A DNA stretch of 63,551 bases, the filler included, from Stramenopiles sp. TOSAG23-6 (taxonomy: Eukaryota), in assembly GCA_900128565.1 (NCBI GenBank). It is 12 parts of 12 records of this genome, joined end to end, with 100 filler letters (N's around TTAATTAATTAA, not from the genome) between each part and the next. Parts side by side here need not be neighbours in the genome. Positions count along the whole stretch, not along the records: positions 62,460 to 63,551 come from LT639750.1; 11 more parts are not named here. One strand, 5' to 3'. The translations under genes and the position numbers were made by a program. The notes under the pieces are model-generated. The model saw only the letters and a program-made list of their open reading frames with translations. It made no database searches and had not been told where the DNA came from. Every line of letters begins with the position of its first letter. The first letter of the stretch is position 1. Below, in pieces: positions 55 through 63,551 of this stretch.

Positions 55-1477
55 ACAAATAGATGTTGATAACATTAATTTCATAAATTGTTCAATATCA
101 TATTTCTCTAATTTATCTGGCTTTTTTTGTGTATACACAAATGATGGTAAATATGAAGTAAATCCACTTGGAGGTGGACAAAATGTTGTGAAAAACTTTT
201 GATACGTTTCAGGGTATTTTTCAAGTAATTCTTCATCGGCTTTCTGTATTGTGGAAAATATTTTTTTTTTACCGAAAAAAAAAATCGTTAGGTACAAAAT
301 TTCGTACCAAAAAAAAATAAATTTGAAATTCATAATGAAAACGTACATCAACAATATCTTTAGCTGTAGCATATTCATATCGCGTAAGAGGAAACATACT
401 AGACAATGATCTAGCATCTTTATATTCAGTGAAACATCGATTCCATGGAATCATTTTTGTTTTTAATAAAAAGTCAATTGCTTTTTCCATTGACTCTTTA
501 GATATAAAATCATCTTTTTCCATTGACTCTTTAGATATAAAATTATTCTCTTGATTCATCTCTTCTTCATTAACTATGACACCATCAGTCGTATCATCAT
601 TTGTATCATCATCAATTACTGTACCTTCGATATCACTAAATAACTTAAAAATACTTTCAAGTCTTTCTACCGCTGGACCGCTTACAACATGTAGTATGAA
701 AAAATATTTTTTTTTTCGTAAAAAAATCGTTAGGTACAAAATTTGGTACGAAAAAATAAAATTTGAAATTCATGATGAAAAACATACAGATGATAAAAGA
801 ACTAGAAGTAAAACGACATTTAGTTTTTCTTCTGATGTTTTCTGATCTTTCATATCTTTGTGTTCAACTCCACGTTCTAAAAAGCGAATGTTTCTCTCTA
901 TAATATGACCAGCTTTTATACCAGTTGGGAAAATATCGTCAAATTCAGTCATAATATAATGGAAAAACTCATGCGCTGTCGCCAGTCCATTAGATGTCTC
1001 AAATTTCGTTATAACAGATGCGGCAACACGGTCAAATTGATCAGTATTGAAATCATTCAATTCTTTTAGACTTTTCACTTCACTCGGTGCTAGCATACGT
1101 TTACTCCAGAATGTGTTTCGAAATATGTCCCTACGCTCAGATTCCTGGTTCTTTCTGTAAAACCAGTTTCCAATAAGTCCAATGATGCCAAAGAAACCAA
1201 ACATTCCCCAAGGCCAAGAAGACGGATCTACAAGGCGTTCACCCCATGTCGGCTCTTTTCCACTATTTTCAGCTGCTTTACTTGCAACTTGTTTTGAAGA
1301 TGAACAAAGTCTAGCACGTACTGCAAAATATGGTTCTATATTGTATACAGATAAACGCGATGAGTCACGATAGAAATACGTGTGTCGTCTAGAAGCTTTC
1401 GTGATTCCAAGATGAACTTGTCGGAAATATCTCGTCATTACCGCTCGTGGAACAGCTCTACTCAAGAGATGCATCAT
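55..1477 (-). CDS. Hypothetical protein, probably mitochondrial (presequence-like N-terminus, one TM helix); exons 1477-788, 688-347, 243-55; 3' end runs off the window
   Basis: Three ORF-track fragments join in frame (690, 342 and 189 nt exons) once repeat introns are removed; Arg/Ser-rich N-terminus; hydrophobic WGMFGFFGIIGLIGNWFY. Confidence 0.7.
244..346 (-). mobile_element. Introner-like intron, GT...ATAC-AG (canonical end)
   Basis: GAT|GTACGTTTTC...GTACCTAAC...CACAATACAG|AAA GCC, in frame. Confidence 0.9.
689..787 (-). mobile_element. Introner-like intron, GT...CTAC-AT
   Basis: TCT|GTATGTTTTT...CATACTACAT|GTT GTA AGC restores the frame; the next AG is out of frame. Confidence 0.85.
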
Positions 1478-7077: not shown

Positions 7078-7968
7078 TTAGACAAACACTATTTTTTTCT
7101 TTGTTATGTTGACACTTGATTTTTTAGATGGCTCAGAGGATGACAAACTTGCCTTTGCAATTACAACAGATGGTTCCATCAATGGGTATGTATACTTTTC
7201 ACTCATTACAGTAGATTCGGTATCAACATGGCCATTGCTAGCAATGTGTTTTTGTTTTGGTGAAAAACTTGCAATTGATGATTTTGTAGTTTTCATCAAC
7301 TCCTTCATTTGACGTTGCATTGTCTCACGCATATCCTTTAATTCGCGTTCTTTTTCTTCTTGTGTTTGCGGTCCTTTTTCATAATTTTCGGATGTATCTT
7401 CAGTAGAAGCTGAATGAGAGGCGTATTTATACGAAATACTATCATCTTCCCAAGGACTGACTAATGACGTTTCTCTATTTGATGTTTCATCTTTTCTTTG
7501 ATTTTGTTGCTTTGATAGTATATTAGATTTTTTATGATGTTTAGGATCCCTACGACTTAGTTTTGTTTCAAGTTTGACTTTTGAAAACTCCTTTGTCTTT
7601 GTAGGCACATGCCTTGGAGACATTTCTGAAGCCTCAGCCCATTGCACTGATACATTTTTACCCATTGTCTCTTTCGATGATGAAACAATAGTTTTTGCTG
7701 TAGGTATTGTTCCTGTGGCTGAAGGTACAGTACCAAAGGATATACATCGATCTAAAAGTATTATTCGTGTTGGAAAAGTTGTACTTATTAAAACACGGAA
7801 CACTCTTCAATGTATGTCCCACCTCCTTCAAATTCTGTATCCGAGTTAAGTAAAATATTGAATGACAATATTGTTCCATCACGGTGAATACCACATATAT
7901 AATAAAAAAATATTTTTTTTTTTTTACCGAAAATAAAACAAAAATTGTTAGGTACAAAATTTTCTACC

Positions 7969-7999
<31 letters not shown>

Positions 8000-8156
8000 T
8001 ATGATGATGAAAACGTACATGATCTTTTTGCATTTACATTTGTTGTGTTTTTTCTATTATTTTCTTCTGGAACTTCATATTTTACAAAAAATAAATCTCG
8101 AAATTGAAATGAATTAATATCAAACGCATGACGATGTGCCATTTTTTGAAATACAC
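7078..8156 (-). CDS. Fe(II)/2OG dioxygenase-like fragment followed by a low-complexity region; 5' truncated; frame break near 7790
   Basis: DLFFVKYE...RSCGIHRDGTILSFNILLN...FEGGGT after removing intron 7895-8018; link to ORF 7078-7803 unresolved. Confidence 0.55.
7895..8018 (-). mobile_element. Introner-like intron, GT...ATAT-AT, with an internal (AT)n expansion
   Basis: TCA T|GTACGTTTTC...TTATATAT|GT GGT ATT CAC gives RSCGIHRD. Confidence 0.85.
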
Positions 8157-15505: not shown

Positions 15506-16436
15506 ATGTCACAACATATAACAATATGTCCTTTCCCTCTAACTTATGCAGGGGGAAAGTGTACTTTCGACTGCTATATTCCCACGTTCTCAAAAAAAGT
15601 ATATGAAAATACTGATGACGTGCAAACAATCACTTCCGGTATTGTTTTACTACTGTTGACATTCTTACTAGTCTCCAATATGCTAAACCCAAAGAAAAGA
15701 AAGCGTATTGGGGTCAATTCAATTATTTTTGCTAGTTGGAATATACTGCTAGCCCTTTTTTTTCCTAGCGTAATATTTGGCACACGTAGTGTTGTCTGTG
15801 CAAATGACAGAGCAGTCACACAGTCTCGTTACTCTATATTTTCCTCCAAAGGATTTTGGTGTATGTGGCAAGGAATAACTCTTTCATATTTTGTATTGGT
15901 TGCAACTTATCTTTGGTGTCGAACAGCAGTACAACTTCTATATCGTGTCCATTCGCGGAAAGTAAAAACACCAAGTCGAAATAATGAAAAAAAATCTCTA
16001 TATTTATGCTTTATTTTGCCTTTTATACAAGTATGTCTAATGGCAACTTTTAGAGTGTATGGCTACAGTAGTCCTGTAATGTATTGCTTCTTTGCTAATA
16101 CTTCAAAGAGGCAGAATGATAGAGCAAGTAATTGGCAACCTTGGGTGTTTTTTTATGTGCCAATAGCAGTTTCATGGGCTTGTGGTACTTTTTGCTTAGT
16201 GAAATCAATCTTTCGAATGGCTAGTGTTATGTACGTTTTCAAAATTAAATTTCGAATTTATTTTTTTCGTACCAAATTTTGTACCTAACGAATTTCGAAT
16301 TTAAAATAGTTTTTTTCCATCCATGAGAGCCACTGGAATTGACCTCAAGAGTCTCCGTGGGCCGCTATTATATACCGTATGCTTTACAATTGTCTTAGCT
16401 CCTGTGTTCTGTGTACGTTTGTATATGAAATATCAT
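15506..16436 (+). CDS. Multi-pass GPCR-like protein (cAMP-receptor/Frizzled-like 7TM); exons 15506-16230 and 16325-16436; 3' truncated
   Basis: Serial TM helices, CMWQG and YCFF extracellular Cys pair, WVFFYVP. Confidence 0.65.
16231..16324 (+). mobile_element. Introner-like intron, GT...ATCC-AT (an in-frame GAG acceptor at 16327 is also possible)
   Basis: GTT AT|GTACGTTTTC...TTCCATCCAT|G AGA GCC. Confidence 0.8.
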
Positions 16437-27246: not shown

Positions 27247-29144
27247 ATGTCTGAGGCGCCAATTACAACGCCAGATAGTACTTCAACATCTCACGTCTTT
27301 GGCACAAATAATCAGTATGCTACTTCTGAGTTTCTACTTGCATTTTTAACTGCTTTAGGTTTTACAATGTTGCTGAGTCATGCAATTCTTTGTCGATTTA
27401 AAGTGACTTGGTTATCTGAAGCCTCGTGTGCAATTTTTCTCGGCGCATTTTTTGGGGGTATCTTGGGGCTTATTCCCGGCGAAGATGTTGAAACCATGAA
27501 AGAAAAAGTAATCTTTTTCAGTCCTTCAATATTTTTCTGTGTATTTCTTCCGCCAATTATATTTGCATCTGGATATCATATGAAGGGAAGTTTCTTTTTC
27601 TTTAACATGGTCAAGATTTTAACATTTGCCGTCATTGGTACTTTCATCAGTGCTTGGATATTTGGTGTATTTCTGTGGTGTTTTGGTAAAATTGGTACGT
27701 TTTCACAATGAATTTCAAATGTAATTTTTTTGCGTACGAAATTTTGTACCTAACGAATTTTTTTACAAAAAAATAGTTTCACAGTACATGTATTTCTGTG
27801 GAATTTTCTTTTCCTGAAGCTCTGACGTTTGGTGCTCTTATTAGTGCTACTGACCCGGTTACGACTCTGGCTATCTTTGACTCTCTAAAAGTAGACCCAC
27901 ATCTTTTTTATATTGTTTTTGGTGAAAGTGTCTTGAATGATGCTGTCTCAATAGTTTTATACCATACATTTGCTAAATTTATTGGAACAACACCGAAATC
28001 TGGTACTGCTTTGTTTGCTATTCTTGACTTCTTTTTGATATTTTTTGGTTCAACTGCTGTTGGAGTTATTTGTGGTTGTTGTACTGCACTTCTTTACAAG
28101 CATATAGTAATTAATAGNNNNNNNNNNNNNNNNNNNNNNNNNNNNNNNNNNNNNNNNNNNNNNNNNNNNNNNAATGAAGTTCTAGAATTATCAGTATTTG
28201 TTATATTTGCATATGTACCATTTCTTTTAGGCGAGTGGTTATCTCTCAGTGGAATTGTTGCTATACTTTTTACAGGGATAACTATGAAGCATTATACATA
28301 TAATAATATGTCTAGAAACGCGAGAGAAAAGTCAGACACAATTATTGCCGTCTTGGCAAATATTTCAGAAACTGCTATTTTCCTTAATTTAGGTTCATCG
28401 ATGTGGAATTTTAATAGTTTTCATTTTGGTCTTGTGATTTGTGCATGTACAGTTTGTCTCCTCGCCCGTGCAGCTCATATTTATCCAATGTCTTTTATCT
28501 TAAACAAGTGTACTTCACGTTCGATTGCAAAAAATCAGCAGCATATGTTATGGTTCTCTGGTCTTCGTGGTGCTATAGCATATGCATTAGCGATGAACTT
28601 TCCTAGTGAGCATAAAGATTATGTAATTTCAACTACAATTATTATTGTCTTTGTCACTGTTGTTTTCTTTGGTGGAGCAACAGACTTTCTTTTGAACTGG
28701 CTCCGTATTCCTAGAGGACCTCAAACATTTCAAGCAAGTCATGAACGAAGTATGGTTCAATTTGTTTCTACAAATAGAATCGTACGCTTTGATAGGAGAT
28801 ATATTCAACCAATTTTATTAAGAAGACGTGGTAGCCGTAAGGTGAAACAAAACCTAAGTATGATTCAACTTGATACTGAAGAGGATACTAAAAAAGTGAC
28901 TGAAATTACTTTAACAACAAATTCTAGTTCACAATTGAATGAAGATAAACATCTAAGATGTGCATCAAGTGTTCTTGAAGAGTGGAAATCTTCAATCAAT
29001 GATTCAGATGAACATTTTTCATCTATTGATGCTGGAGACACTGTGTTGATCAATAAAGAAGTGGGCAACAGTGATAGTTTTGAAGATGAAGGTGTTTATA
29101 CATATGGCGTAATAGAAGCCCAAACACTAAATGGGAGTACCTAA
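27247..29144 (+). CDS. Na+/H+ exchanger, CPA1 (NHE/NHX) family; exons 27247-27694 and 27790-29144
   Basis: FLPPIIFASGY, FGALISATDPV, VFGESVLNDAVSIVLY, WFSGLRGAIAYALA. Confidence 0.95.
27695..27789 (+). mobile_element. Introner-like intron, GT...GTAC-AT
   Basis: ATT G|GTACGTTTTC...CACAGTACAT|GT ATT TCT gives KIGISVEF; the CAG at 27782-27784 is out of frame with this donor. Confidence 0.8.
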
Positions 29145-34621: not shown

Positions 34622-37600
34622 TTAATCTTCAATATCCTTTATATTTAATAATATATTGTGTAGTGCAATTTTAGATGCTGGTTGAATTAACACATCTGTA
34701 AAGAATGCACTAGTACTACTAATCCTTGATTGGTTCAATTCTGTATTATTTCGTGTATTTCGTCTAACCACACTATTTAGAGTTGCTACAGTCATTATAT
34801 CATTTATATCTTCTTCTGTAAAATCTACGATATTTTGGTACCAAAAACGATCACCATCACGAATACGGCGAAATTGCTCAACAATGATTGAATCTGCAAC
34901 TAATCCCAGAGTTTTATTGTAGGGTGAAAATGATTTGTTTGTGGAAATATTTTTTTCGTACAATTTGTTAGGTACGGAATTTCATATGAAAACAAATTAA
35001 AATGGAAGAAAAATAAAACATACATGATTTGTTTGTGGAAATGAAATGATGTGTAGTTGTTGTTGCTTGTGCCATCATACCTACAATTGCATCAATATTT
35101 GACAGTTGGGTGGTGTTTTCAATATGGTACAAACTGCGAAGCTTATTTTCAATAGAATCTTGAATTTGATTAACTGAAACTGAATGTTTGTTATTTTCAA
35201 TAGAATCTTGTATTTGATTAACTGAAACTGAATGTTTGTTGTAATACTTTGACATGTGTAGGAAGTCTTGTAATCCCTATTGTGAAAAAGTGATATTCTT
35301 TTAAGTTTAAAAAAAATCGTTAGATACAAAATTTCATAATAAAAAAATAATTTGAAATTCATGATGAAAACGTACATGGTCCCTTCCACGCTGAATATCC
35401 AAAGAAGTAAGGTCAAGACCACCTTGTGAGGGTAAACCCAACAAAGTATTTCTAATAGCTGAAACTGTCCGCACATCCAATGCCTGAGCTGGCAATATAG
35501 TCATTCCATGAAGAATGGCATCAATTATTCTTTTCTGAGTACCGATATCACTATATTCATCAATATCAAGAAAAAAACTATTTGATAGATGTAGTGTTGA
35601 TACACCACCTAAACAATTATTCAATATGTTACTATCATTCTTATATAAAGTATGTTCGTAACATAGAAGAAGCACATCATTGATTTGACTGTGAGGTAAT
35701 CGAAAGGCGGCAGTTGAAAATTCAGTAAGAACTCCTGGATCAATACTAGAATTATAACCCATATATGGAAAAGTTCCATTTACTCCTAATGCATTGTGTC
35801 CTAGAAGTGCAGGTAAATATTCATTATAAGTTATATGCTGCAATTCACTTTCTACGAATCGTCGCGATTCCTTGAACAACAATTCGTCGAGTACGATCGA
35901 ATCCATTGTAATACTATTATTATATCGTTTTAGTTCATGTCTAATCGCAGAAGCCCATCGGTTGTGTTCCCTATGCCATAGTGTATGCAATGCAAGTAAT
36001 CCTGGCTGTATGTTAGCTCGAGTGTCACCTGCAAGTGAAAGTTTTTCGGTTGGCTTTGCTGTAGGATTATCATTTGGAAGTCTATTTTGATTCAACATCA
36101 GTGAATATGGACATCTAGATATCGATTCTCTTCTTCTTGGGTGACTTTTGAATGTATCGTCTGTGAGACTGGCATTTGTATGTCGCCTATTTGCAAGTAA
36201 ACCAAACTTTCCAAGTCGCAATGATTTCTGGCGAATTCTATTAGAACCGTAAATAGTAGACCCATCTAAAAATGATGAAACTTTATTTGTCTGCTCTCGA
36301 ATAGGGTGTTCTCTACCATTATAAGAATTATTTGTCAAATTTTTATAATGATATATTGAACGTCTAAACCGGATGACTCGATTACCTTTTCCTTCTTTAT
36401 CAAATGTTTTATCACCTTTAGGTACCTTTATTGCAAAGTTTTCACTTGGTGAAGAATTGGGTTGAGGTGTAGTAAGACTAATATCATGAGCTAAAAATTG
36501 TCCAAAGTGAACCATCATATCGTTTAAATGTCTTGGAGACCATAATAAATCAATGTGCTTATTCGTTTTTGTATCATTCATTATCATTGATGATAAAGAA
36601 TTACTAATCTTTCTCGCACTGGGTCGATCTCGACCTGCTGGAGAATCATACTTATCACTATATGCAGCAGGGAAAAGACGTCTTAGAGAATCCCCTGCAC
36701 TTCCCCAATGCAAATGTTTCATATTGTTTCCGAATCCATCAGGAGATCTCCACTTGCTATCTCTTGTAATTGTATCATTTTTATACTTTATATACTTTGT
36801 AAAATACTTATAAATACGGTCCGCTGCACGACGAGAAAGTTTCTGAAAGGCAATGTCGTCTATTGTGTCACTATATTGAAACACGAAACTATTTAATTTC
36901 CTTTTTGGTACCTTTGATTTCATTGTTGGGCATGCATTGGGTGATGGAGAATGACAAAATTCACTCCTTTTTAGAAACACATTTTCTGTATCTTCAATGA
37001 TAGTAGATTTTTTTGTTTTTTTTATATCAAATTCTGTACCTAACATTTGTTTCTTAGTAGTATAGTGAAGAACATTTGAATCTGCACAGACTTTAATCTC
37101 TGTGTTTTGAGTTTCAATAAGAAATTCTCGTTCAATTATTGGAATATTGGATGAACCAATTTCTTTACAATTAGTTATATTTTCATCAATATTGCAAGAT
37201 CCACGGAGAAGGGCATTTCTTGTCCATCGTACTATAAGTCTAAGAGTACTCGAATACTGACCAAGACCAAGTATTGTGAAAAAATATTTCAATATTTGAA
37301 ATTCATTAGGTGAGAAATATTCTTAGTCAAAAAAAAACAAGTTTGAAATTAAATTGGACCACATACAAAATGTGCTGTTGATTCACTTTGACCTAAAAAC
37401 CCAGAGTTGGTTCCAATTTGAGTTGTTTGCATGAAAACCCAGGATTTAAGTTTATTCATTGTATAAATAGATAATTTTGCACCAATGCTGTCTCTACAAG
37501 AAACACCACAACAATCTTTCACTTTTATGCGTAACCATTGATTTCTCTGGGATGCATCAAGTCTATGATTTCCTTTCCCATTGTATAGAGCAGGAGGATG

Positions 37601-39953
37601 ATCTTGATGTCGAATCACAACAATATCTTGAAGTCCATTTCTATCAGCATCAAATACAAGCAATCCACGTCCTTCAATTGTATCATTAGAACCTAGGACT
37701 TTAGATGATGCATTTATAATGCTAAAACTATTACTCATACTTTCAATACAATACTTACTCTTATATTTAGAAGTCATCCACCATGAATGTATGTTAGGCT
37801 CAACCATGTACTGTGAACAGATGTTTTTTTAGTAAACAAAAATGTTAGGTAAAAATTTGCGTATGAAAAAAATCTACACTTTAATTCAATTTTGAAAATG
37901 TACATATAGTCTGCTAAAACTTTCCAAGAATTGTTTGCGGTCGGTATATAGTACATTGTTGGATTATTATTCCAGAATACATCATCATAGGTTGTCTCCG
38001 GGAATATCATACCATTTGCAACGATCAGCTCTAAAAAGCCATCATTGTTTGCATCAATCCAAGAAGTACCCCAACCCCAACCACTATAAAGCAAATTATG
38101 GAAAGATTCATAAATAGAATGTCTCGCATCGACAATATGACCAAGGTTAGTTGATGTATCACATGGATATTCTAGTATTGCATTGTTCAATGTTTTTAAA
38201 CTTTTTTGATCAAAGTGAGAAAATTTACGATTTCCTAAATTTCTATACATTACATTACCGGAAAGTTCAAAATAAGATGTAAAATCTCTCTCTTGAAGAT
38301 CTTCATTACCATATATCGAAGTAACAAAAATATCTAAGAGGCCATCTTGATCAAAATCTGCTACAGCGACGCCCATGCCATTTCTTTCAAATCCCAGACC
38401 AGAGTCTCTGGTTCCCTCGATAAATGTACCATTTCCATTATTCCAAAATATTGCAGATGTTCCAAAGTCTGCAGCGATAAATAAATCAGGCCAATCGTCA
38501 TTATCAAAGTCTGCAAATACAGGTGTAAATGAAAATACTCCACCAGGGGGCTTTGTGCCATCGTGTCCATATTGCTTTGAATCTCTACTATTAATTCTTC
38601 TTGAATAACCTTCAATGTCGACGCCTGCACTACTTGTTGTATCCTCAAAATAACCCGGAGCTTGTTTTCCTAGGTTTCTCAGCAAACGTGAATTACTCCA
38701 TCGCCAAGTTTTTAGATTCCTAGATATTCTTTCAGAAGAAGAATGATCATCATGTATACTAGATATTCTTTCAGAAGAAGAATGATCATCATGTATATTG
38801 ATTTTAAATCCATCTTTTATTGATTGTGAAAAAATATTTTTTTTAGTAAAAAATTATTGTTAGGTATACAATTTGGTACAAAAAAAAAAATTGAAATGGA
38901 AACGTACATTAATTGTTCGACATTCAACATGAAGTAAAAACGCCATTCTGTTACATATAAATCAAGGTATCCATCACCATCATAGTCAGCAGTTGCAATA
39001 GAAACACCAGATGTCAGAGAGCTATCATCTTCCAAAATAGCTGTAGCATTTCGTTCAAGCCCAAGTTCAATAAAGTGAGGAATTTTCTGTTTTGTGTTTG
39101 AATTGTTCTGTTTTGTGTTTGAATTGTTCATTTGATTAATAAAGAGTAAGTGACGGTTACCTCCAACAGTTGTAACGTACAAATCAAGATCACCATCATT
39201 ATCAGCATCAAACCAAAGAGCACCATTTGTCGAGGCTCCTGAAGAACGTAATCCTTTAGATAAACCAAATTTAGTAGTTACATCTTGAAAACCAGGAGTA
39301 TGACAAGTTTTATCGTTAGAGTCAATTTGTAATTTATGTATTAAATCTCCGCACGTATTACGGTAGAGGACACCATTACCAAAACTATTGATATCCTTTG
39401 AAATTTTAGAAACACCATTCCGAACCATGGCTTGCGTAAAAAATAAATCTGTCCAACCATCTCCATCGAAATCTCCAGCAGCAACTCCACCAGTCATTCT
39501 CTCAACTATGCAATTTGCTCCAAAGTCTGTACCCATCAACTCTCTTTTTAAATAATTCAAAAATATATCTTCCTCTTGAATATCAGCAAGTTTAAACTCA
39601 GTTTTGATTATCTCTGATATATGATTGAACATCGGTTCATCAAAAATACAGTTTGGTGCAAAGACTGGAAGCGACTGAAAATGTACCAAATTCGAAGAAA
39701 TTGGTGCAACCTCTTCGAATTTGGGAGAATGAATGGATACAGTCTTCTGAATAGTATTCTCATTGTCCAATAATCCAAGTAATTCCAACAACTTTTCATT
39801 TTCCTCGTCTGAAAGCTCATCTGATATTTGTCTTAATTGTCTCTCCAACTGCTCCTCACACAACACACGGTCAGTTAAATCTATACAGAAGGACAAGGAG
39901 GGTCTACTACACGAAGCTAAAGAAACTAGTAGTAGTATGGTAAGTACTTTCAT
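34622..39953 (-). CDS. Secreted FG-GAP/ASPIC-UnbV (CRTAC1-like) protein fused to an animal-type haem peroxidase; 6 exons, about 1617 aa
   Basis: Exons 39953-38908, 38818-37904, 37805-37367, 37268-35376, 35276-35024, 34929-34622 join in frame; DxDxDGxxDL repeats, QS..AHFGLG, GQFLAHD, GDTRAN, AFRLPHSQ, IQRGRDHGL, RDGDRFWY. Confidence 0.85.
34930..35023 (-). mobile_element. Introner-like intron ending AT, flanked by a 19-nt direct repeat (acceptor register ambiguous)
   Basis: T|GTATGTTTT...GTACCTAAC...ATTTCCACAAACAAATCAT|TT TCA. Confidence 0.7.
35277..35375 (-). mobile_element. Introner-like intron, canonical GT...AATAG
   Basis: Restores IQRGRDH|GL. Confidence 0.92.
37269..37366 (-). mobile_element. 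Introner-like intron, GT...ATAC-TT
   Basis: CAT TTT|GTATGTGG...CACAATACTT|GGT CTT GGT restores the ASPIC HF|GLG motif. Confidence 0.9.
37806..37903 (-). mobile_element. Introner-like intron, GT...GTAC-AT
   Basis: TAT AT|GTACATTTTC...CACAGTACAT|G GTT GAG; using the upstream CAG leads to a stop. Confidence 0.85.
38819..38907 (-). mobile_element. Introner-like intron, GT...ATCA-AT
   Basis: TTA AT|GTACGTTTCC...CACAATCAAT|A AAA GAT, in frame. Confidence 0.8.
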
Positions 39954-40254: not shown

Positions 40255-41121
40255 ATGGATTACTTTCAAGTTATACCAATTTCAAATCAGCAAATAAGCA
40301 ATGGTGTGATGTTTCCTTTGGCTCTGGCTCCTCTTCCTGGTTCAGATAAATCTTTTGACTCACTTGTGAAAGCTATCAAAAAGCACCGTAAGCACATCTT
40401 GACCACTACGTTTCAGCACGGTGCTCTCCTACTTCGAGGGTGGACAAATGATTCTCCTGAGGGTTTTGCCGATGTTAGTGAAGCGCTTAATTTAGAAAAG
40501 TATCCGTATGTCGGTGGAGCTGCACCTCGCACGAATGTAGTTCGAGACGTCGTTTTTACCACGAATGAATCACCACCTGAAAAGCCAATACCCTTCCATC
40601 ATGAAATTTCCCAAGTACCAAACCCACCTTCATACATTATGTTTTATTGTAACGTTGAACCAAATCAGGGAGGTCATACTCCTATTATTCAATCAGCTGA
40701 AGTTTGCGATTATTTGTTTCGAAAGTACCCTGAGTTTGCAAAAGAGCTAGAAAGCAAAGGTGTAAAATATATTAGGGTTATGCCAAAAGAGACAGATAAT
40801 GATTCTCCAATCGGACGCTCGTGGAAAGAAACATTTCAATGTGAAACTAAGGTTGATGCAGAAAGAGCAATGTCTAAAATTGGAAGCACATGGGAATGGT
40901 TATCTAATGGTGATGTTCGTGTTACATCTGCTGTAGTACCAGCATTGTACGTTGTCCACTTTTACTTTTGTTTTTTTTTTTCATACGAAATTTTGTACCT
41001 AACTGTAAAACCTAAAAAATCAAATTTTTGAAATATTTTCCTAAAATACTTACGTATAGATAAACGAAGTGGTCGTAAAATGTTTTTTAACTCAGTTGTT
41101 GCAGCATACACTGGATGGATT
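40255..41121 (+). CDS. TauD/TfdA clavaminate-synthase-like dioxygenase; exons 40255-40946 and 41052-41121; 3' truncated
   Basis: YVGGAAPRT, NESPPEKPIPFHHE, GGHTP, FFNSVVAAYTGW. Confidence 0.9.
40947..41051 (+). mobile_element. Introner-like intron, GT...ATAC-TT
   Basis: GCA TT|GTACGTTG...AAAATACTT|A CGT ATA GAT; the next AG gives an immediate TAA. Confidence 0.88.
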
Positions 41122-41186: not shown

Positions 41187-41286
41187 NNNNNNNNNNNNNN
41201 NNNNNNNNNNNNNNNNNNNNNNNNNNNNNNTTAATTAATTAANNNNNNNNNNNNNNNNNNNNNNNNNNNNNNNNNNNNNNNNNNNN

Positions 41287-41364: not shown

Positions 41365-42586
41365 ATTGTGATTGTAAGCGTCGATGTGCCACGTCATCAC
41401 TTAGAGTATTTCGACTCATTGCCAGAGCATCAAATTCATCAATGAATAAGATTGATGGTTGCATGTCAACTGCTTGAGAGAAAATAGAAACTAGTGCTTT
41501 TTCACTCCCACCATTTATTGTGAAAAAATATTTTTTTTTTAGTAAAAAAATCATTAGGTACAAAATTTTCTACCAAAAAAAAAATTAAAATTCATAATGA
41601 AAACGTACAGTCCACTTACTTAATAGATCGGCTATATAAATTGTGATATATGTCATTAATTTTTGAAGACTTTGATAAATAATCGTCAATAATGAAAATA
41701 TGATAGTGTATATACAAGCATTTTAATTTGAATAATGTTGATCACAACGATAACCTACGGACAGGCTGAAATAAGAGGTCTTTGTGATTCAGAAGCAGTG
41801 GCTTCCGCAAGACTGGTTTTTCCGGTACCCTGTCCTGGAAAAAAATAATTTAAAAATTTGATTTTTTTCTTAGCTACAAAATTTCCTATATATATAAAAA
41901 CTATAAAAACAAAATTGAAATTCATGATGTATGTAAACGTACCGGTGGCCCATATAAGAGTATTGTAGTAGGCATTTTACGACAACCTGTAAGTAGCCTT
42001 GGATCAATTAAAGCAGACATTGTACAACAATCTCGCAATGTATTTTGGAAAAATATTTCAAAAAAAAAAACTTAAATTTGTTAGGTACAATCGCGTTATT
42101 CGCCCCAATGATATCTTCAAAGCAACGATTTGGAAATGATGCAGTAACTATTGGTTCTTTCTTGGTATCAGTTATTGTTTTTTTTGTATTGTTTGTGCCT
42201 TCTTCAAGCACTGGTTGTTGTTGATCTCTGTCAATACTTGCCTTGGCGTTATATGGCGGATAAATCCTTTGACTTTTGATGGACGGTTGAAATGATGCAG
42301 ACGAAGACATGGTGGTAGTATCAAACTGACGTTTATTCCCAATGATTTGTCCCTCGATTTCAGATAACCGTTTCGATACCATAGTAATACAGTTATCACA
42401 AACTATGCGAGTGCTATCACTCACTCGGAACTGTTCTAAATCATCTTGTCTGGAAACACAATGTTCTAATAGAGCGACAGCTTTGTTATACGAAGCATAC
42501 GACTGTAAAACTCCGCTGGTGTTATTACTGGATCCACTTAAGCCTTTTGTCACATATGACATTGCATGAGCTATTACAGAATCCAT
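41365..42586 (-). CDS. AAA+ ATPase of the katanin/VPS4/spastin type with an MIT-like N-terminus; multi-exon, 3' truncated
   Basis: FEDIIG, ILLYGPP|GTGKT, DLLSKWT|GGSEK, PSILFIDEFDAL. Confidence 0.88.
41513..41608 (-). mobile_element. Introner-like intron, GT...ATAA-AT
   Basis: TGG ACT|GTACGTTTTC...CACAATAAAT|GGT GGG AGT GAA restores SKWxGxSEK; the next AG gives TGA. Confidence 0.9.
41634..41758 (-). other. Non-family intron, probably GTAGGT...TTTATAT (alternative GTCCGT...TAG, 41632-41762)
   Basis: Needed to join ISAC(P) to ADLLSKW. Confidence 0.65.
41830..41942 (-). mobile_element. Diverged Introner-like intron, GT...GGAC-AG, inside the Walker A motif
   Basis: CCA CCG|GTACGTTTAC...CCAGGACAG|GGT ACC GGA AAA ACC. 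Confidence 0.92.
42038..42091 (-). mobile_element. Introner-like element, 3' half only
   Basis: Exon runs directly into TTGTACCTAAC...CCAAAATACAT; donor half absent. Confidence 0.75.
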
Positions 42587-43051: not shown

Positions 43052-46000
43052 ATGCGCTACTCAATATTACAAATCATTATGCTTCTTCTATTGTTGTTTC
43101 CATCGATGTGCATTGCTGCAGATGCTGTAGATAAAGCCGATGATGCAAAAGAAACAACCTCGACCGAAAGAAAAACAAAAGTTCCCCCGACACCAGAAGG
43201 GAAAGCGGGTAAACCAGTACCAGAAGGGGAAACGGGCGAACCAGCACCAGAAGAGAAAGCACCAGAAGGGAAAGCGGGTGAAACAGCACCAGAAGGGAAA
43301 GCGGGTGAAACAGCACCAGAAGAGAAAGCACCAGAAGGGAAAGCGGGCGAACCAGCACCAGAAGGGAAAGCGGGTGAACCACCAGAAGGGAAAGCGGGTG
43401 AAACAGCACCAGAAGAGAAAGCGGGTGAAACAGCAGAAGGGAAAGCGGGCGAACCAGCACCAGAAGAGAAAGCACCAGAAGAGAAAGCACTAGAAGGGAA
43501 AGCGGGCGAACCAGCGCCAGAAGAGAAAGCAGGTGAACCAGCACCCACAGAGAAAGCAAGCAAAACATCACTAAAAGAATTAGTAATCGAAGGCAAACTA
43601 AAAGAAGAAGTTGCAAAAGCAGCTTTTGAGTTTTCGGAATCACCAATTTATGGAGCCAAAATCGTTGGCTCTGGATATAATGTACATTTTCAAAATTGAA
43701 GTTTTTTTTTCGTACCAAATTTTGTACCTAACAAAGAAATTGAATTTAAAATATTTTTTGATTATACATGCTGTGACTGGAATAATTCAGGGTCAAATTC
43801 TTTTGCATCCACTTCACGATGATGATTTGTACGTTTTGATTATGAATTTCAAATTTATGTTTTTTTTTCGTACGAAATTTTGTACCTAACAAATTTCGAA
43901 TTTAATTTGTTTTTACAATACATGTATGAACGTCTGAAAGAAGTAAACGGATATGAAGTACCACCTGGGGTGGTTTATTCTGACCAAAATAAAGGTGAAT
44001 TTGCGGAAGTGCCACATACATTTTCAAGTATTATAGAGTTTGCAGATGAAATTGCACGTGTATGTTTTCAAAATATTTCAAAAAAAACTTTTTTTGGTAG
44101 AAAATTTTGTACCTAACGATTTTTTTACTAAAAAAATATTTTTCACAATACGTTCAAATGGATTCAGTGCTACGGAAGGAATGTATATGTTAGACCGAAA
44201 GGTTATGGAAGTTCGAAAAATGATGCTTTATTCTGACATTACTTTGAAAAAAACAAATTATAATTTGTATACTTTGAAATTGGATAGTACGTTTTCAAAA
44301 TTAAATTTCGATTTTTTTTAGTACCAAATTTTGTACCTAACGAACTTTAAATTTGATATATTTTTTCACAATACTTCCAACGTCAACCCAATGTCGCAAC
44401 CTAGAAATATACTGAAGAGCACATTTGTAGAGGATGTTTTTCATTTACCTGATTGCTATTTTGCAGATTGCAATATAAAAGACGATGCAACAATACAACA
44501 AAAAGGTTGCAGAAACACTTTAGGTAGGAAAACATTTATCGAGTTTGGATTGAGTGAACTTGGTTCTGAAGATAAACCTACTCCAACATGCCTCGATTGG
44601 CTTACGAGTAAAACTAAAGATAAAGATCAGAAGAGAAAAGCTTTATTGGAGGCTGAAAAGAAATCCAAAAGTGTGAATAAAAGAAGAGGAAAATATTCGA
44701 AAAAAGTTGTCCCTATAGATTATGAAAATTGCGAATCAGTTTTCTTTGAAGATATTGAGGTAAGTGAAGAAGATGAGAAATTAATAACTAGCAAATATCC
44801 ATGTGATCCTAAAAAACCAAAAGAGAAGTGTGTAAAATTTGGGCAAGATACAGGTACAATTTGTAATATGCATGATTTTCATAAAATAGCCAAGTTTATT
44901 AACAGGTGGGGAACACATGTAATAAAACAAGCTTCATTTGGTGGTTCTATAGAAACAGTTGTACGTACGCGTAAAAACAGCCAATGGCCATATATTATTC
45001 AAGGTCAAGAAGTAATGTTTAACAGAGCCCCTGAAAATTTCATACCGGGTTTGGTAGCACGACATGCAGTATTCGATGGAAAATTTGCTCCACCTGGTTT
45101 TCCGCTTTCATTTCCATACAACACAACAAATAGTCATATTTCAATGGCTACTACAGATTTGGCTCGGCCTGAATCAGAGCGTGATGAAGCCAGTGAAATG
45201 GGAGTTCAATCAATTGAATACAATTTTAGAGGTGGCGTAAGGCCCCCGGTTCTAACAGAAAAATTGAGAAATACCGATGTAGCAGATTGGATTACAACTC
45301 TACCAGAAAATCCTGGCATTCTTGATGAATTTACAACTATGATTCCGATTGAAAACACTTTTTTACATCCAACAATGATGACCCAGATGATGACACTTTT
45401 AGAGAAAGAAAAAATGAAGAAAGAAGACAAATTAAAGTTCGAACAAAATGAAGCATTAAAAATGGCTCCAGATCTCCGTCCTGGTACGAGAATACTTAAA
45501 CCCGGCACGGGGCCATTTGGAGAGAATCAGGTAGAAGGTATTGAAGTGGCATATATACCAACTTATGACGAAGTAAGAGGAATTACTCCACCAGCTTTAC
45601 CAGTTGACGAAAACAAACAAGTTCCACCAGAAGAAAAAACACCAGAAGAAAACAAACAAGTTCCACCAGAAGAAAAAAAACAAGTTCCACCAGAAGAAAA
45701 AACACCAGAAGAAAAAAAACAAGTTCCACCAGGGAAGCAATTTCGATTTCGGGCTCCTCCCAAGGAAGAAAAGGAAACAAAAGGTGGAAAAGGGGCAGAT
45801 GATGAAAATAAGAAATCAAAAGGAGCAGATGAAGAAAAAAAACAAGAGGAGGAAAAAATTAAACGGAAAATGGTTATGATGAAAAATTTCCGATCTCTTC
45901 TGCTTACTAAGAGTGCTGTATTAGGTAATATGCTTGATTCAGTAGTAAGAATGAAAAGACAGATGGATTTTCAGGAGCAGCGGATGCATGGAACAATAAA

Positions 46001-48807: not shown

Positions 48808-49302
48808 ATGCGAAAGATTGCTTTTATGATCACATTCTTACTATTATGCATAACGTACAAAATAAGTTCGGCAACTTTTCGTGCAAACGCCAAAGCCTGG
48901 CACCCACGTACTTCATACTTACGTCTACCTCCTCTATCGCAAAGAGAGATATTGCAAACAATATGGGGAGTCCCCGAGAACAAAAGGGATACTGCAGTAG
49001 TTGTAAATCCCAAGTATATCTGGCATGACAGTGGAGTAAATGATCATGATATGATCTCTAAGGAAAGAGATCTCGTTGAAGAATTCTCACAAGAAAACAA
49101 AAAACAAATTATTGCTTTATATCTACAGTGTATACGTCATACATATGATATTTTTCTTTTAAAACAGTCTTTTGTATACAATGATATTATTCAAACGTAT
49201 AAAAATATTTTTGAATGGCAATTGAAAATACAAGAAAATAAATGGACGATTCTTTATCCTGCTATTATCGAAGAGTATCACAAAACTGTATGGAGTAATT
49301 AT
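48808..49302 (+). CDS. Hypothetical protein with signal/TM N-terminus; 3' truncated
   Basis: ORF ends at a family donor TAT|GTACG. Confidence 0.55.
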
Positions 49303-49390
49303 GTACGTTTTATTTTTGTCAATTTCGAATTTATTTTTCGTACGAAATTTTGTACCTAACGATTTTTTTTTGAAATATTTTTCCAAAATA
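49303..49390 (+). mobile_element. Introner-like intron cut at a contig end
   Basis: GTACGTTTT...TTCGTACGAAATTTTGTACCTAAC...TTCCAAAATA. Confidence 0.85.
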
Positions 49391-49517
49391 NNNNNNNNNN
49401 NNNNNNNNNNNNNNNNNNNNNNNNNNNNNNNNNNTTAATTAATTAANNNNNNNNNNNNNNNNNNNNNNNNNNNNNNNNNNNNNNNNNNNNGCACTGTGGG
49501 CTATAAAAACCTTAACT

Positions 49518-58729: not shown

Positions 58730-58772
<43 letters not shown>

Positions 58773-59210
58773 TTTTTAAAAAANNNNNNNNNNNNNNNNN
58801 NNNNNNNNNNNNNNNNNNNNNNNNNNNTTAATTAATTAANNNNNNNNNNNNNNNNNNNNNNNNNNNNNNNNNNNNNNNNNNNNTCGTAAAAAGTTTGATC
58901 CATCTGCAGAACTCAAATATGGCATCATAGTAGAATTTTCTAACTTGAATCGGGTACAGTGCAACACTGAGTATGGTAGTGACACCTGTAGGGCACTACC
59001 TTTGCTAAAAGTACCTTGAACAAGGAAAAGTCAAGTCTCACGGTTAGTTACGGTTACAAAACGAAAAGGACACTATATTTGCCGATTTTTTGAAAAAAGA
59101 TTGGGTGCCGCGGTCAAAGATATGACAATTGCAAACCATTACTGGTTTCCTCTACGCAAACGTTCTTCCACGTAATTATTGTACCTCCAGAAGAAAAGCT
59201 TACTTGGCAC

Positions 59211-59975
59211 TTGGATGAAGCTGACTGCTTTTCAGACTGGACAATTGTAGTCAAGACTGAAGGGAGTGATGATAGTGGCACATCATATCATTGTCACAAA
59301 AATATAATCGCAGGAGGGGAACGTCGGCTAAAGTATTTTGAAACTCTATTTAGATCTTCTTCATTTTCTGAGCATGGAAACAATGAGAGTACACTGGTTT
59401 TCAAAAAAACAGCAGCCGCAGCTTTTCCTACTCTTCTTAATTTTGTTTATAGTGGTACATTGGATGCAACTACGGATAACGCGGTTCCTTTGTTTTTTCT
59501 TGCAAATTATTTTAATTGTGTTGCACTTGATAAAGCAGTAAAAAAATTTATGGACAAAGATCTTTGTATTCACCCCAAGGCAGCTGTATATGTTTGGCAT
59601 GCATTTAATTATGACTTGACAAAGCTTCTAGCAGTAGCAGTGAAAAATACCACAGATTTTTTATTAACCAAATTGAACAAATCAGATTCAGAGTTGATGA
59701 AGCAATATAATGCTATAAACAGACATACAATAATGCATTTTCCGATGAAAGTATTTCTTAAGATCTGGGCACGTATAGAAAAGCATGTGAAAGAAAATTG
59801 GAATACAATGTACACTGGTAAGTATATAAATCATTATTATTATCACCAAGCTGTTGCTGTGTATTGTTTTTATAATTTAGACAACGGAAAAGTCGATTCA
59901 TCATTTATCGATAGAGTTGCAAATTCTACTATGATGCCATATTTGAGTTCTGCAGATGGATCAAACTTTTTACGA
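59211..59975 (+). CDS. BTB/POZ domain protein, truncated
   Basis: FSDWTIVV...YHCHKNII...YFETLF...FPTLLNFVYSG. Confidence 0.85.
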
Positions 59976-60077
59976 NNNNNNNNNNNNNNNNNNNNNNNNN
60001 NNNNNNNNNNNNNNNNNNNTTAATTAATTAANNNNNNNNNNNNNNNNNNNNNNNNNNNNNNNNNNNNNNNNNNNNAA

Positions 60078-61167
60078 GTGAACTTACCGACACTTGTTAT
60101 CAAATGTGTAGATGAAAATGAAAAGGATCCCGAGGACGAAGACCACCAAGTGAGGAATTTCTACTTGTGTGGTTACATTGACCCTAACCCTAACCCTATT
60201 GAGATACCGCTCATATACAGCGGAAGCCCACACTTGGACGGAGATAATATCGAAGAAGAAAACAGATTTTATATCGATTTACACCTAAAGGACCACGAAG
60301 GAGATATATACGACGAAAAACATTATGAAACACAAATCACCAGATCATGGCTTCTAAAAAACGTTAAGAAATTTACACCTGAGTTTAAAACATTATTCAA
60401 TGATATGAAATTTGAGTTCAGCAAGAAATTTTTTCGATACTCTGCGGCTCCAGTGGATAAATCCAAAGCGAGAGAACAGATGAAGCTTTTTAAAGAAATG
60501 CTACTGGAACAAACGATATATTTTGTGTCGTCTGTGCCGCCAACCTTGGGCTTGGTGCCGTATACAAAAGCAACAACAAAAAGTTCAGTAAAGGCCTTTT
60601 TAGCATTTCCGCAAGCTCATCTTGTTACAGTGTATGATAAAAAAGAAGAAACAATGGAATCTTTTCATCACACCGCTTGCCACTTTTGTAGAATTGTGAA
60701 TCGAGAACATTCCGTGTGTTTTGATAGAGATGTCGACGAAAAACGCCCTAACCATAATTGGCCAAAAGTAAGGAAAACAGTAAGGAAAAGATATGAAAAA
60801 TTAGTTTTGCAAGAATATCAAAAATATTCAGCCATATGTATCGAAAATAATTTTTCACAGACGTTCAATGTCCAAAACAAAAACAACAAAAACTCCTTTT
60901 GTGATGAGACTTCACATAAACATCATTCCGCTGGACTTCGTGATGAGACTTCACATAAACATCATTCCGCTGGACTTCGTGAATTCTGTACACCAGATCC
61001 ATGGCATTGTAGTGTATGCAAGAAAGTTGAGGTGAGATCGGATGTAGCAAAATTTGTGATGACAGCCGAGCGTCCTGATATATTTAAAATTAAAGACTTT
61101 ACACAAATGTCTGACAAAAAAAAAGGAAAAAGCAGGGATATATTTGACGAAAACAAAAAACAGGCAT
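60078..61167 (+). CDS. Hypothetical protein fragment (open across the whole contig)
   Basis: Stop-free frame; CHFC and HCSVC motifs; 39-nt tandem duplication at 60901-60978. Confidence 0.55.
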
Positions 61168-61267
61168 NNNNNNNNNNNNNNNNNNNNNNNNNNNNNNNNN
61201 NNNNNNNNNNNTTAATTAATTAANNNNNNNNNNNNNNNNNNNNNNNNNNNNNNNNNNNNNNNNNNNN

Positions 61268-61770
61268 CTGGAAATGTTAACAATTTGCCTGTCGTAAGCG
61301 CATTAACAGAGATACCAGATACGCTAAAACCGACAATACTGCAAGCAGACTTAGACTACGGGACCGGATTGCTTTTATTAACGGCCAGCGAAACGCTTCT
61401 TTCGGAGATTAATATGAACAACATATACATTGAAGATCTTGAAGGGGATTTAAAGATACAAATCACCAGTTCAACTGTAAAAGACGGCATTTCCGTTCAG
61501 ATGGAGTTACAATTACAAGAACACCAGCGGGCAAAGGCAATCGCTATTTCTAATACAAAAGGCGGTGGCGATCAGCAGCTTGGTGACGGCACTCCGGTAC
61601 AATTGTTTGTCATGGAATTTGCCGTAAAAGACGTGGTTGGGAATTATAACAAAAATTTGAGCAGAATCGTGGTGCACGAAACGGAAGATAGTATTCTTCC
61701 CAACACATCGAGTGTTTTCTTAGATTTTTCGTTGGGTGTCATCACCGGTGCCCGGGTCGATTCCCGCTGA
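61268..61770 (+). CDS. Fragment of a large repetitive surface-type protein
   Basis: Two similar units, E..D...P......LDY/F..G.L/I; ends abruptly. Confidence 0.5.
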
Positions 61771-62459
61771 AACACTGATTGCGGCTTTGAGTTACCCGTT
61801 ACATGAACCCTAAACCGCACTCCACCCTCCGCTGCCATCACTTTCGTCTGACCATCTTCGTAAAGCCTTTCGTCCCCGTATATATTGTAATCCTCAAACG
61901 ACTCCATTGATGCGCACAATGATTAAACAATCCAAAGATAACAAAAGCTGGTGAAAAGACACTTTCCTCAAGTGCAATTATCTGGCTTCATGTGCAATTT
62001 CCGCTTTGCAATGTGTAAAACAGATCGCAATAAAAGATCGCAATAAAATATTATATTAATATATAATTATATAAAATTAATTAATAATAAAAAAAACATA
62101 ATAAAAAAAAATAATATTATTATTTTGAAAAGAGAAAAGAGAAGAAGAAGGTGTAACGGATAACAACAGTGGTGGGTGGGTGATTGTAAAATTATTATAA
62201 TATAATTTACTTATTAAAAAATATAATTCTTGGTATATTTTTTTAGGTAAAATTATACCATTATACCTACTATAACTACTATCAACTAAACCATTCAACA
62301 AAAAGTACTGACTTTTTTATTTACTAATTAACAAGCTCAACAAGCAATAAAACGATTTGNNNNNNNNNNNNNNNNNNNNNNNNNNNNNNNNNNNNNNNNN
62401 NNNTTAATTAATTAANNNNNNNNNNNNNNNNNNNNNNNNNNNNNNNNNNNNNNNNNNNN

Positions 62460-63528
62460 CCTCATGAAAACGCCATTGAAGAACTTCGGAAACTGCAAAT
62501 ATTAAAGACGTCATCAGATGATCCAGATACTGTATGGCTTCATAAAAGTTTTCAAGTACAGTTGAAAACAGCTGTAAGTGAGTTGTGCACACCATGGCAA
62601 CCTGTGACAGAAGTTCAAGACGGAGAAGCAAAAATTCCTACAGAGGCATCTCTCATGGAAATGGCAACAAAGAAGTGGGATGCCGTTTTGCATTATTTGG
62701 TTGGCTCGTGGGACTCATGCGAGAGGAAACGAGTAAAAATTCAAAGAAAGACGAAATATCAACAAGTAAAGGTAAAGGTAAAGGAGGAGTAAAATTAACA
62801 GTAACAGTGAGACGTGCTGCACTTGACAAAGAATCTTCTTTATCATCTATGAAATCTGGTGGTCGAGGACCCCGTTTGATTATAACACATAAAAATGAAA
62901 CCATCACATCTGCAGGATATGAATTTTTGCTTCAAGAAACTAATGCTCAAATTTGGAGATTTTTAAAACGTTATTTTCAAGTATTAAATGGTAGAGATGC
63001 AGATATGGCATCTGCCATTAGTTTAGTGTTTAGGCTAGGATTTTGTGAATTAGGAAAAGGATATCAAACACAATCTTTGTCTCCTACTCAGTTCTCCATG
63101 CTTTCACATTTATCCGATTTTGGTCTAGTTCATATCCAAGATGTCAACGTTCATGGGGAGGGCAAATATCGCGGGAAAATTGGTTTAGTTCGTTGTTTTT
63201 ATCCAACACCTTTCGGTATAAATCTTTTAACAAATCATACTCTACAATCGAATGTACGTTTTCATCATGAATTTCGGAATAATTTTTTTTTCGTACGAAA
63301 TTTTGTACCTAACGATTTTTTTTTCATGTGAATATAGATATAAATGATTCATCGATAACTCGTACTACTTCTCAAACGAGATGCCATTTATTTGTGGAGA
63401 CGAACTTTCGAATATATGCATATACTACATCAGACCTTCATGTGTACATGTTAAAATTATTTGCTAATTTGTTATATCGACTTCCCAATATGGTTTTAGC
63501 GGTGATAAATAGAAAGTCCGCGACTTAT
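62460..63528 (+). CDS. TFB2: TFIIH subunit p52/Tfb2, partial; frame break near 62710; intron 63254-63339
   Basis: WDAVLHYLVG, ITSAGYEFLLQ, DFGLV, FYPT, FVETNFRIYAYT, LPNMV. Confidence 0.9.
63254..63339 (+). mobile_element. Introner-like intron, GT...ATAG-AT
   Basis: AAT|GTACGTTTTC...GAATATAGAT|ATA AAT; splicing at the AG gives ATA TAA (stop). Confidence 0.82.
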
Positions 63529-63551
63529 GTATGTTTTCATCATTCATTTCA
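63529..63551 (+). mobile_element. Introner-like intron, 5' end at the window edge
   Basis: TAT|GTATGTTTTCATCAT. Confidence 0.7.

Follow-up and report, generated by a model that had tools for sequence, protein, structure and literature searches.

Which 3′ splice site is used by an intron whose available AG dinucleotides seem to be bypassed? This question is raised by a 63,551-nucleotide (nt) stretch of DNA (hereafter the window) from Stramenopiles sp. TOSAG23-6 (GenBank assembly GCA_900128565.1), in which 12 parts of 12 records of the genome are joined end to end, and in particular by an intron at 63254-63339 in its gene for p52 (Tfb2) of TFIIH. A first-pass annotation of the window had noticed that this intron carries an AG directly before the AT at its end, that in two other introns, one in a Na+/H+ exchanger (NHE) gene (27695-27789) and one in an FG-GAP/ASPIC gene (37806-37903), an AG lies upstream of the site that restores the frame, and that a fourth intron (35277-35375), in contrast, does use its AG. 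From these observations it was suggested that acceptor choice does not follow scanning for the first AG, and that it may depend on distance, on structure or on pairing between the 5′ and 3′ ends. The sequence facts were confirmed. The p52 tail reads GAATATAG|AT|ATAAATG, and use of the AG at 63337 with the donor at 63254 creates a stop codon (ATA TAA). The tails of 27695-27789 and 37806-37903 (minus strand) are CACAGTACAT, with an AG that ends 5 nt before the frame-keeping site, and 35277-35375 (minus strand) ends CACAATAG, with an AG that the reading frame requires. What had not been seen is that all four introns are copies of one repeat family. It is probable that these copies form a single abundant, transposon-like (introner) family in a protist genome that is compact and rich in A and T, which is spliced at a fixed site 2 nt past a conserved tail, and that the dinucleotide at this site is usually AT and not AG.

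The p52 intron and its repeat family

In the p52 gene, the exon upstream of the intron corresponds to positions 174-259 of the Tfb2 profile (human residues 195-272) and ends ...TCG AAT at 63253. The intron opens with GTACGTTTTCA at 63254, and ATA AAT GAT follows after 63339. Joined at this point, the downstream exon reads INDSS...LFVETNFRIYAYT (INDSS...ETNFRIYAYT) and matches profile positions 281-335 and residues 306-351 of human p52. Since the frames of both exons are fixed by homology, the length of the intron must be 2 modulo 3. AT is repeated at the two borders, so that an AT..AG intron at 63252-63337 would give the same mRNA. Another donor at 63216 (GTATAA), combined with the AG, is also in frame, but it deletes FGINLL..., which is conserved in the relatives P0001 and P0002 as FYPTPFGIGLL, and it was rejected.

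The repeat family was found through an 18-nt core, AAATTTTGTACCTAACGA, which is matched 23 times in the window with at most three mismatches, against 0.22 matches expected. A family profile built from 15 copies gave 28 matches across the 63.5 kb (nhmmer). One unit is 86-122 nt long, commonly about 90 nt. In order, it has GTAYGTTTTCA, an A/T-rich arm that varies, a run of T, CGTACG, the core with CCTAAC, another run of T or else of A, ATATTTTTTCACAATAC and 2 bases. The core contains a branch-like CTAAC, and the conserved tail of the family is ...TTTCACAATAC, followed by the 2 further bases. Among the 17 complete copies used for the junction test below, G1, T2 and A3 are invariant at the 5′ end and G5 is found in 15. 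Each base of tail positions -12 to -3 is common to 9-15 of the copies; A stands at position -2 in 13 of them, and position -1 is occupied by T in 14 and by G in three. The distance from CTAAC to the junction ranges from 27 to 51 nt. Compared with conventional U2-type introns, the GT start, a GTRAGT-like context and the branch motif are all present, but a terminal AG is found in 3/17 copies.

These near-identical introns lie in unrelated genes, encoding NHE, p52, an animal-type haem peroxidase, FG-GAP/ASPIC, TauD, AAA ATPase and MACPF proteins. Membership in the family is shown, and so is orientation: wherever Pfam fixes the strand of the host gene, the copy is sense-oriented, and the element bears splice signals of its own. 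The repeat is very abundant by summed contig depth, which in DNA and RNA runs is 1e3 to 1e4 over the copies versus 3-8 over unique sequence, summed depth not being equal to copy number. Rfam gave 0 matches over the window. JGI metagenome contigs gave 15 exact matches to the 18-nt core, of which 0/15 are family copies and all are chance matches in unrelated sequence.

Position of the 3′ junction

For the 17 complete copies with clear flanking frames, the donor was set at |GTAYGT and the frame-keeping acceptor was sought. Automatic assignment of the 3′ motif failed for 7/19 entries, and those seven were placed by eye. The copy at 47678 (copies are referred to by the position of their 5′ end) was excluded from the counts, as it begins with GG and can be read in two ways: at 47587-47678 (minus strand) GGAGGT replaces GTAYGT, and the frame is open either by GG..AT or by GT..AC shifted by +4 and -2. 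The limits that frames and motifs set on the junctions are plain in the sequence, and from these limits, together with homology, we infer the junctions themselves. In 15/17 copies the sole frame-keeping junction is exactly 2 nt past the equivalent of ATAC, where 1 in 3 would be expected (P = 4.5e-6). Because the junction stands at a fixed place 2 nt past the tail, the last two bases of the intron are whatever stands there, and indeed the final dinucleotide is AT in 10 of the 17, TT in three, GT in one and AG in three. An eighteenth copy, from 35023 to 34930, adds one more AT end.

If the junctions are placed correctly, the view of the first-pass annotation that the acceptor is not found by scanning for the first AG is supported: in 7/17 copies an AG that lies between CTAAC and the junction is left unused, and 14/17 end without AG. 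Single-base changes in the conserved tail account for the unused AGs at 63336-7, 27783-4 and 37811-2: in the NHE copy and in copy 37903, CACAATAC has become CACAGTAC, and in p52 ATAC has become ATAG. As to what determines the acceptor, position relative to the conserved end of the element (CACAATAC plus 2 nt) fits best, and the suggestions of structure and of 5′/3′ pairing found no support, as described below.

Matching dinucleotides at the two borders are not confined to p52. In eight of the 15 copies with the cut 2 nt past ATAC, exon and intron end in the same dinucleotide, a number reached by only 815 of 100000 shuffles, and these identities take in all the TT/TT and GT/GT pairs. The matching flanks look like a 2-bp target-site duplication. 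A mechanism can be proposed on this basis. The element would carry its own signals, namely a U2-type 5′ site |GTAYGT, the branch-like CTAAC within the 18-nt core, a T-run and the tail TTTCACAATAC. The second-step cut would then fall at a fixed place just beyond the element, which implies that the spliceosome can cut at non-AG sites. Excision of the element together with one copy of the dinucleotide repeat would restore the original coding sequence. Upstream AGs that arise from point changes in the tail would be skipped, since it is position and context, and not whichever AG comes first, that determine the site.

Genes that constrain the junctions further

Frame evidence that spans several introns comes from a MACPF gene at 43025-47414. 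Removal of four consecutive family introns, which end AT, AT, GT and TT, leaves one open frame of 1340 amino acids, and when each acceptor was shifted by -2 to +2, only 1/625 combinations was open, the unshifted one.

In an AAA-ATPase gene on the minus strand, conserved motifs limit the junctions. The copy at 41513-41608, whose tail has no AG, produces the junction SKWT|GGSEK when it is cut at AT. Among the 150 best AAA representatives there are 215 occurrences of this motif, 132 with the context [SGAN][KRM][WYF] and 83 without it, and in 132/132 context-bearing motifs exactly one residue separates the aromatic residue from Gly. This fixed spacing would be lost if the acceptor lay 3 nt further upstream or the donor 4 nt further downstream. 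In the copy from 41942 to 41830, the junction falls within the Walker A motif GPP|GTGKT. Pro-Pro stands at these two places in 239/284 Walker A motifs, and only the second AG yields it; this second AG coincides with the usual junction of the family. The same gene also has a non-family intron from 41762 to 41632 with ordinary GT-AG ends, so that normal AG acceptors are used in this organism.

The NHE gene allows a comparison by loop length. Cutting at GT..AT gives a loop of 10 amino acids between ...KIG and LTFGAL, and a loop of this length is found in 29/48 homologs that cover the region, including all nine of the closest (63-76% identity). A 13-residue loop occurs in 1/48. At the junction column, Gly is present in 18/29 of the homologs with a 10-residue loop. 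A public gene model, P0005, is 100% identical to the NHE of the window and reads GKIGTTCISVEF here. Its junction is probably a mis-joined canonical intron with three extra residues (TTC), to judge from the loop in its relatives. The source label of P0005, 'GSMAST32.ASY1.ANO1.533.1 assembled CDS', points to a MAST-3-type marine stramenopile as the host, and the next-best NHE relatives are eukaryotic models, stramenopiles and dinoflagellates.

The peroxidase gene contains two family copies on the minus strand. The peroxidase profile match, positions 2-404, ends exactly at the donor 35375, An_peroxidase resumes with positions 465-526 after 34930, and the 253-nt exon between the two introns is open in one frame only. 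The flanking halves and this single open frame thus fix both junctions, AG at 35277 and AT at 34930. The motif RGRDH|GL was considered as a check of copy 35375 and rejected: the exon ends ...RGRDH (peroxinectin residue 390), but the next exon is a coiled-coil-like insert and not peroxidase, so that this junction is supported instead by the chain of frames that runs to the C-terminal exon of the peroxidase. This insert at 35024-35276, which splits the profile at 404/465, has HSVSVNQIQDSIEN twice and matches only GCN4-type zippers. At 34930-35040, a 17-nt direct repeat, TTTCCACAAACAAATCAT, is found at the end of the exon and at the end of copy 35023; it may be what is left of a second copy, or else a long duplication. 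Across 37269-37322 and 35334-37322 (minus strand), a single open frame leads from the last ASPIC-like exon (GLGQYS...) over about 190 codons and on into the peroxidase domain. The two parts, FG-GAP/ASPIC and peroxidase, may belong to one gene, or the spacer may simply have no stop.

Alternative explanations

Several observations weigh against splicing of one introner family at a fixed site. In 2/17 copies (35375 and 8018) the junction is directly at the end of ATAC, and the usual ACAT| site is not compatible with the frame of the truncated copy (42088); DIxG...GPPGxGKT spacings of 34, 35 and 36 all occur, so that the acceptor of this copy is not singled out. Relatives differ in the length of the linker that holds the p52 junction, so that homology cannot place this junction to within two codons, and the protein collection contained no same-species protein that spans it. 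At 62700-62740 the p52 frame changes (near 62715-62725) between ...HYLVGS and LMREE... without a recognisable intron; about 18 residues of the relatives P0001 and P0002 are missing there, owing to an assembly artefact, to a deletion whose length is not a multiple of 3, or to an unexplained cause. More generally, the 17-18 copies come from one window of a fragmentary assembly with at least this one unexplained frame break. In two RNA runs, which were matched to 27000-36999 at small shares (0.15 and 0.13), no junction-spanning contig was found over 33073-41144, the RNA contigs being short and shallow, and the joints listed for these runs are all between repeat copies and are also present in DNA runs. 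As for how the element moves, no terminal inverted repeats were found in the family alignment. To these points must be added two that favour a shifted donor: GTTTTC...AG pairs are in frame in both p52 (63258-63337, adding Val-His) and NHE (27699-27784, adding Thr-Thr-Cys), and P0005 uses exactly this pair for NHE. The NHE pair had been noted in the first-pass annotation and its frame was verified; the canonical alternative in p52 had escaped it.

In such a scheme the AG-bearing copies would be ordinary GT-AG introns cut at GTAC|GTTTTC, with the AG used and a few extra codons retained. The linker of p52 varies in length among relatives, so that two extra residues there would be tolerated, and in p52 taken alone a shifted donor may be in use. 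We nevertheless consider a shifted donor unlikely, although of the four alternatives weighed here it is the one to be taken most seriously. The fit to the frame follows from geometry (+4/-2 or +4/-5) and is no evidence of its own. The 13-residue NHE loop that it produces is the rare one described above, and P0005 may stem from a predictor that accepts only canonical introns. GTTTTC fits the usual GTRAGT donor poorly. Copies 37903 and 43682 have A at +5 and hence no GT at this place, so that the shifted canonical donor is missing from both. Conserved motifs in the AAA gene put the 5′ cut at |GTACGT, and a shifted donor would not serve the 14/17 copies that have no AG at a usable place. A different arrangement, also improbable and ranked next, is that both cuts lie 2 nt to the left, giving NN-GT...AC introns that end at ATAC; p52 would then be AT...AG, with its AG used. 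The same mRNA results wherever the flanking dinucleotides match (8/15 copies, including p52 and 37903), and the ATAC tail is better conserved than the two bases after it. Yet the dinucleotides differ in 7/15 copies, and there the left shift changes a residue. In NHE it gives Cys where 18/29 same-length homologs have Gly and none has Cys, and in AAA it turns Walker A into GPQG, against Pro-Pro in 239/284 motifs. Copy 35375 does not fit left-shifted cuts either. We know of no precedent for a 5′ cut two bases ahead of a conserved GTAYGT. In favour of such ends, Fritillaria is known to have introns that end in AC or AT and whose last triplet is Y-A-Y (PMC13326754).

The elements might also not be removed as proposed, being gene-disrupting insertions in pseudogenes, errors of single-cell assembly, or sequences excised at the DNA level. 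The fragmentary assembly, the contig ends within copies, the frame change in p52 and the lack of an RNA junction in the two runs over 33073-41144 would all agree with this. It is nonetheless quite improbable in view of the sense orientation in all Pfam-oriented genes, the splice signals (5′ GT site, CTAAC, T-run) in all copies, the restoration of the frame at one fixed position in 15/17 copies and the 1340-amino-acid frame across four of them. Moreover, the copies are present at these loci in DNA contigs from two metagenome runs, and no empty sites were found on 33073-41144. The least probable explanation is that RNA structure sets the acceptor: the intron ends would pair, so that the AG is masked and the true 3′ site comes to lie beside the 5′ site, in the manner of Amoebophrya introners or the nonconventional introns of euglenids. 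In 37806-37903 and 27695-27789, the GUAC at one end can indeed pair with that at the other over 4 bp, and 41513-41608 folds well through A-run/U-run pairing (z = -3.2). By RNAfold, shuffled sequence folds as well as the p52 intron (z = -0.07), and other introns reach values down to -3.2; duplexes between the first 30 and the last 30 nt have a mean z of -0.37 and fall below -2 in 1/17 copies. Together with the alignment, which contains no terminal inverted repeat, this weakly refutes structure-guided choice. Splicing of a single family at a position fixed by its tail is the explanation that we favour.

Further features of the window

The features are collected in Table 1. Family copies contain contig ends at 1-54, 8158-8226, 16434-16490, 33074-33143, 41293-41347 and 49301-49390, and the repeat thus evidently breaks the assembly. 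The joins between parts have the form N44-TTAATTAATTAA-N44 and are at 8227-8326, 16491-16590, 24742-24841, 32973-33072, 41187-41286, 49391-49490 and in 57592-62459. The last five pieces of the window, that of p52 included, are 1092 bases each, as if the pieces were ordered by size. At 17253-24092 (minus strand) there is a 2279-amino-acid open frame with a Copia-type reverse transcriptase (RVT_2), probably a long terminal repeat retrotransposon. A weak family match at 21228-21279 inside this frame looks spurious.

Table 1. Family introns, competing introns and related features, with positions counted along the window
Feature	Positions	Strand	Ends	Remarks	Basis
p52/Tfb2 intron, family copy	63254..63339	+	GT..AT	86 nt, GTACGT...ATATAGAT	Tfb2 homology both sides
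Unused AG in p52 intron	63336..63337	+		C-to-G variant of family ATAC end	sequence, alignment
Conserved core in p52 intron	63298..63315	+		AAATTTTGTACCTAACGA, CTAAC branch-like motif, 27 nt before junction	core match
Rival canonical intron in p52	63258..63337	+	GTTTTC...ATATAG	in frame, adds 6 nt (Val-His)	read from sequence
Next family copy in p52	63529..63551	+		begins GTATGTTTTCATC, cut by window end	sequence
NHE intron, family copy	27695..27789	+	GT..AT	95 nt; two unused AGs ending 13 and 5 nt before junction	frame, loop length
Rival canonical intron in NHE	27699..27784	+	GTTTTC...CAG	intron of public model P0005, adds Thr-Thr-Cys	P0005
Peroxidase, family copy	35277..35375	-	GT..AG	end CACAATAG; AG at ATAC position, junction at element end, 2 nt before usual site	frame chain
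Peroxidase, second family copy	34930..35023	-	GT..AT	17-nt direct repeat across boundary	frame chain, An_peroxidase
MACPF, first family intron	43682..43769	+	GT..AT		frame chain
MACPF, second family intron	43829..43923	+	GT..AT		frame chain
MACPF, third family intron	44060..44153	+	GT..GT	exon also ends GT	frame chain
MACPF, fourth family intron	44287..44376	+	GT..TT		frame chain
AAA-ATPase, family copy	41513..41608	-	GT..AT	tail without AG, junction SKWT|GGSEK	conserved motif
AAA-ATPase, family copy	41830..41942	-	GT..AG	junction GPP|GTGKT; first AG (CCAG, 5 nt upstream) unused	Walker A motif
AAA-ATPase, non-family intron	41632..41762	-	GT..AG	ordinary, GTCCGT...TATATAG	frame
AAA-ATPase, truncated copy	42042..42088	-		47 nt, begins at GTACCTAAC core; in-frame acceptor sites end AA, AT or CA	frame
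Family copy	244..346	-	GT..AG	ends CACAATACAG; AG at usual site 2 nt past ATAC	frame
Family copy	689..787	-	GT..AT		frame
Family copy	7897..8018	-	GT..AT	junction 2 nt before aligned usual site; (AT)n run makes alignment ambiguous	frame
Family copy	16231..16324	+	GT..AT	unused AG ends 15 nt upstream; short downstream exon, weaker frame evidence	frame
TauD gene, family copy	40947..41051	+	GT..TT	upstream exon also ends TT	frame
FG-GAP gene, family copy	38819..38907	-	GT..AT		frame
ASPIC gene, diverged family copy	37269..37366	-	GT..TT	upstream exon also ends TT	frame
FG-GAP/ASPIC, family copy	37806..37903	-	GT..AT	98 nt, GTACAT...CACAGTACAT; AG ends 5 nt upstream	frame

Significance and comparison with known systems

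Taken beyond the window, the observations would mean that a MAST-3-like lineage of heterotrophic marine stramenopiles routinely splices thousands of introner copies at position-fixed non-AG sites (AT, also TT and GT) within an apparent 2-bp target-site duplication, ordinary introns still being GT-AG. We put this forward tentatively, at a little less than an even chance. The literature searched contained no report of non-AG introner splicing in MAST-3. In the available text of the MAST single-cell genome paper the words 'splice' and 'canonical' are absent, as is 'splice' in that of a 2026 protist single-cell preprint, and 'MAST' is absent from the main text of two introner surveys, whose supplements may list such genomes. 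The same portion of the MAST paper describes low gene counts in MAST-3 assemblies and apparent pseudogenes in MAST-3A. If the wider reading on MAST-3-like organisms is true, it could explain why such genomes have few predicted genes and apparent pseudogenes. Gene callers restricted to GT-AG will mis-join or break genes in such genomes, as with the three extra residues of the public NHE model. If RNA confirms the junctions, this would be a further independent lineage that accepts non-AG 3′ ends on a large scale. It would be a clean case, with a canonical 5′ site, a branch motif and one shared tail in which only the last two bases vary, and would offer a ready-made set of variants in which to study how the place of the second-step cut is fixed.

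Among known introns, those of the U12 type (AT-AC) need not end in AG, and their 3′ site is set largely by its distance from the branch site. The family differs from them in that the 5′ consensus RTATCCTT is absent in 17/17 copies, and the 27-51 nt between CTAAC and the junction is far beyond the U12 range. Closely spaced AGs in U2 introns are known to compete. The copy from 41942 to 41830, which skips an AG 5 nt upstream, resembles such competition, but 14/17 junctions are without any AG. The family is best filed as an introner with non-canonical splice ends, a kind known elsewhere, here in a lineage for which no report was found.

The nearest parallel in splice ends is in Fritillaria larvaceans, where many introns escape GT/AG and AT is the commonest 3′ end, 44% in F. 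pellucida and 34% in F. borealis, according to the part of the study available (Soo et al. 2026, PMC13326754). There, the introns keep a T-rich tract and are removed by the U2-type spliceosome, U2AF is altered, and an origin from introner transposons with weak splice sites has been proposed (PMC13326754). Within what that text covers, non-AG ends, AT as the commonest end, a run of T and a proposed link to transposon-like introns are shared with the present family. In contrast to F. borealis, which has mainly AG/AC and AG/AT ends, all 17/17 copies here begin with GT, and the Y-A-Y last triplet of Fritillaria, often also present before the 5′ site, is found at the ends of 7/17. The host here is also not a tunicate, as the source label and the nearest homologs are stramenopile or alveolate.

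In Amoebophrya, introners have direct repeats of 3-5 nt that overlap the exon/intron borders and variable terminal dinucleotides, and standard gene predictors fail on them, as stated in the accessible sections of the paper (Farhat et al. 2021, PMC7789003). These elements have inverted repeats of 8-20 nt that form a hairpin, and no fixed 5′ signal (PMC7789003). On that description, a repeated intron family in a marine protist and variable terminal dinucleotides are common to both; unlike in Amoebophrya, the present copies have no end pairing, a canonical 5′ site and a fixed 3′ cut position. Canonical introners, which splice GT-AG, occur in Micromonas, in the stramenopile Aureococcus and in protists among the Tara metagenome-assembled genomes (Gozashti et al. 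2022, PMC9860276). As far as the available part of this survey goes, they supply some splice signals and take others from the insertion site or from the target-site duplication, and introner surveys rely on annotated, mostly canonical introns (PMC9860276). Like the canonical introners described there, the family is high-copy, sense-oriented and spread over unrelated genes, and unlike them, 14/17 of its copies end without AG.

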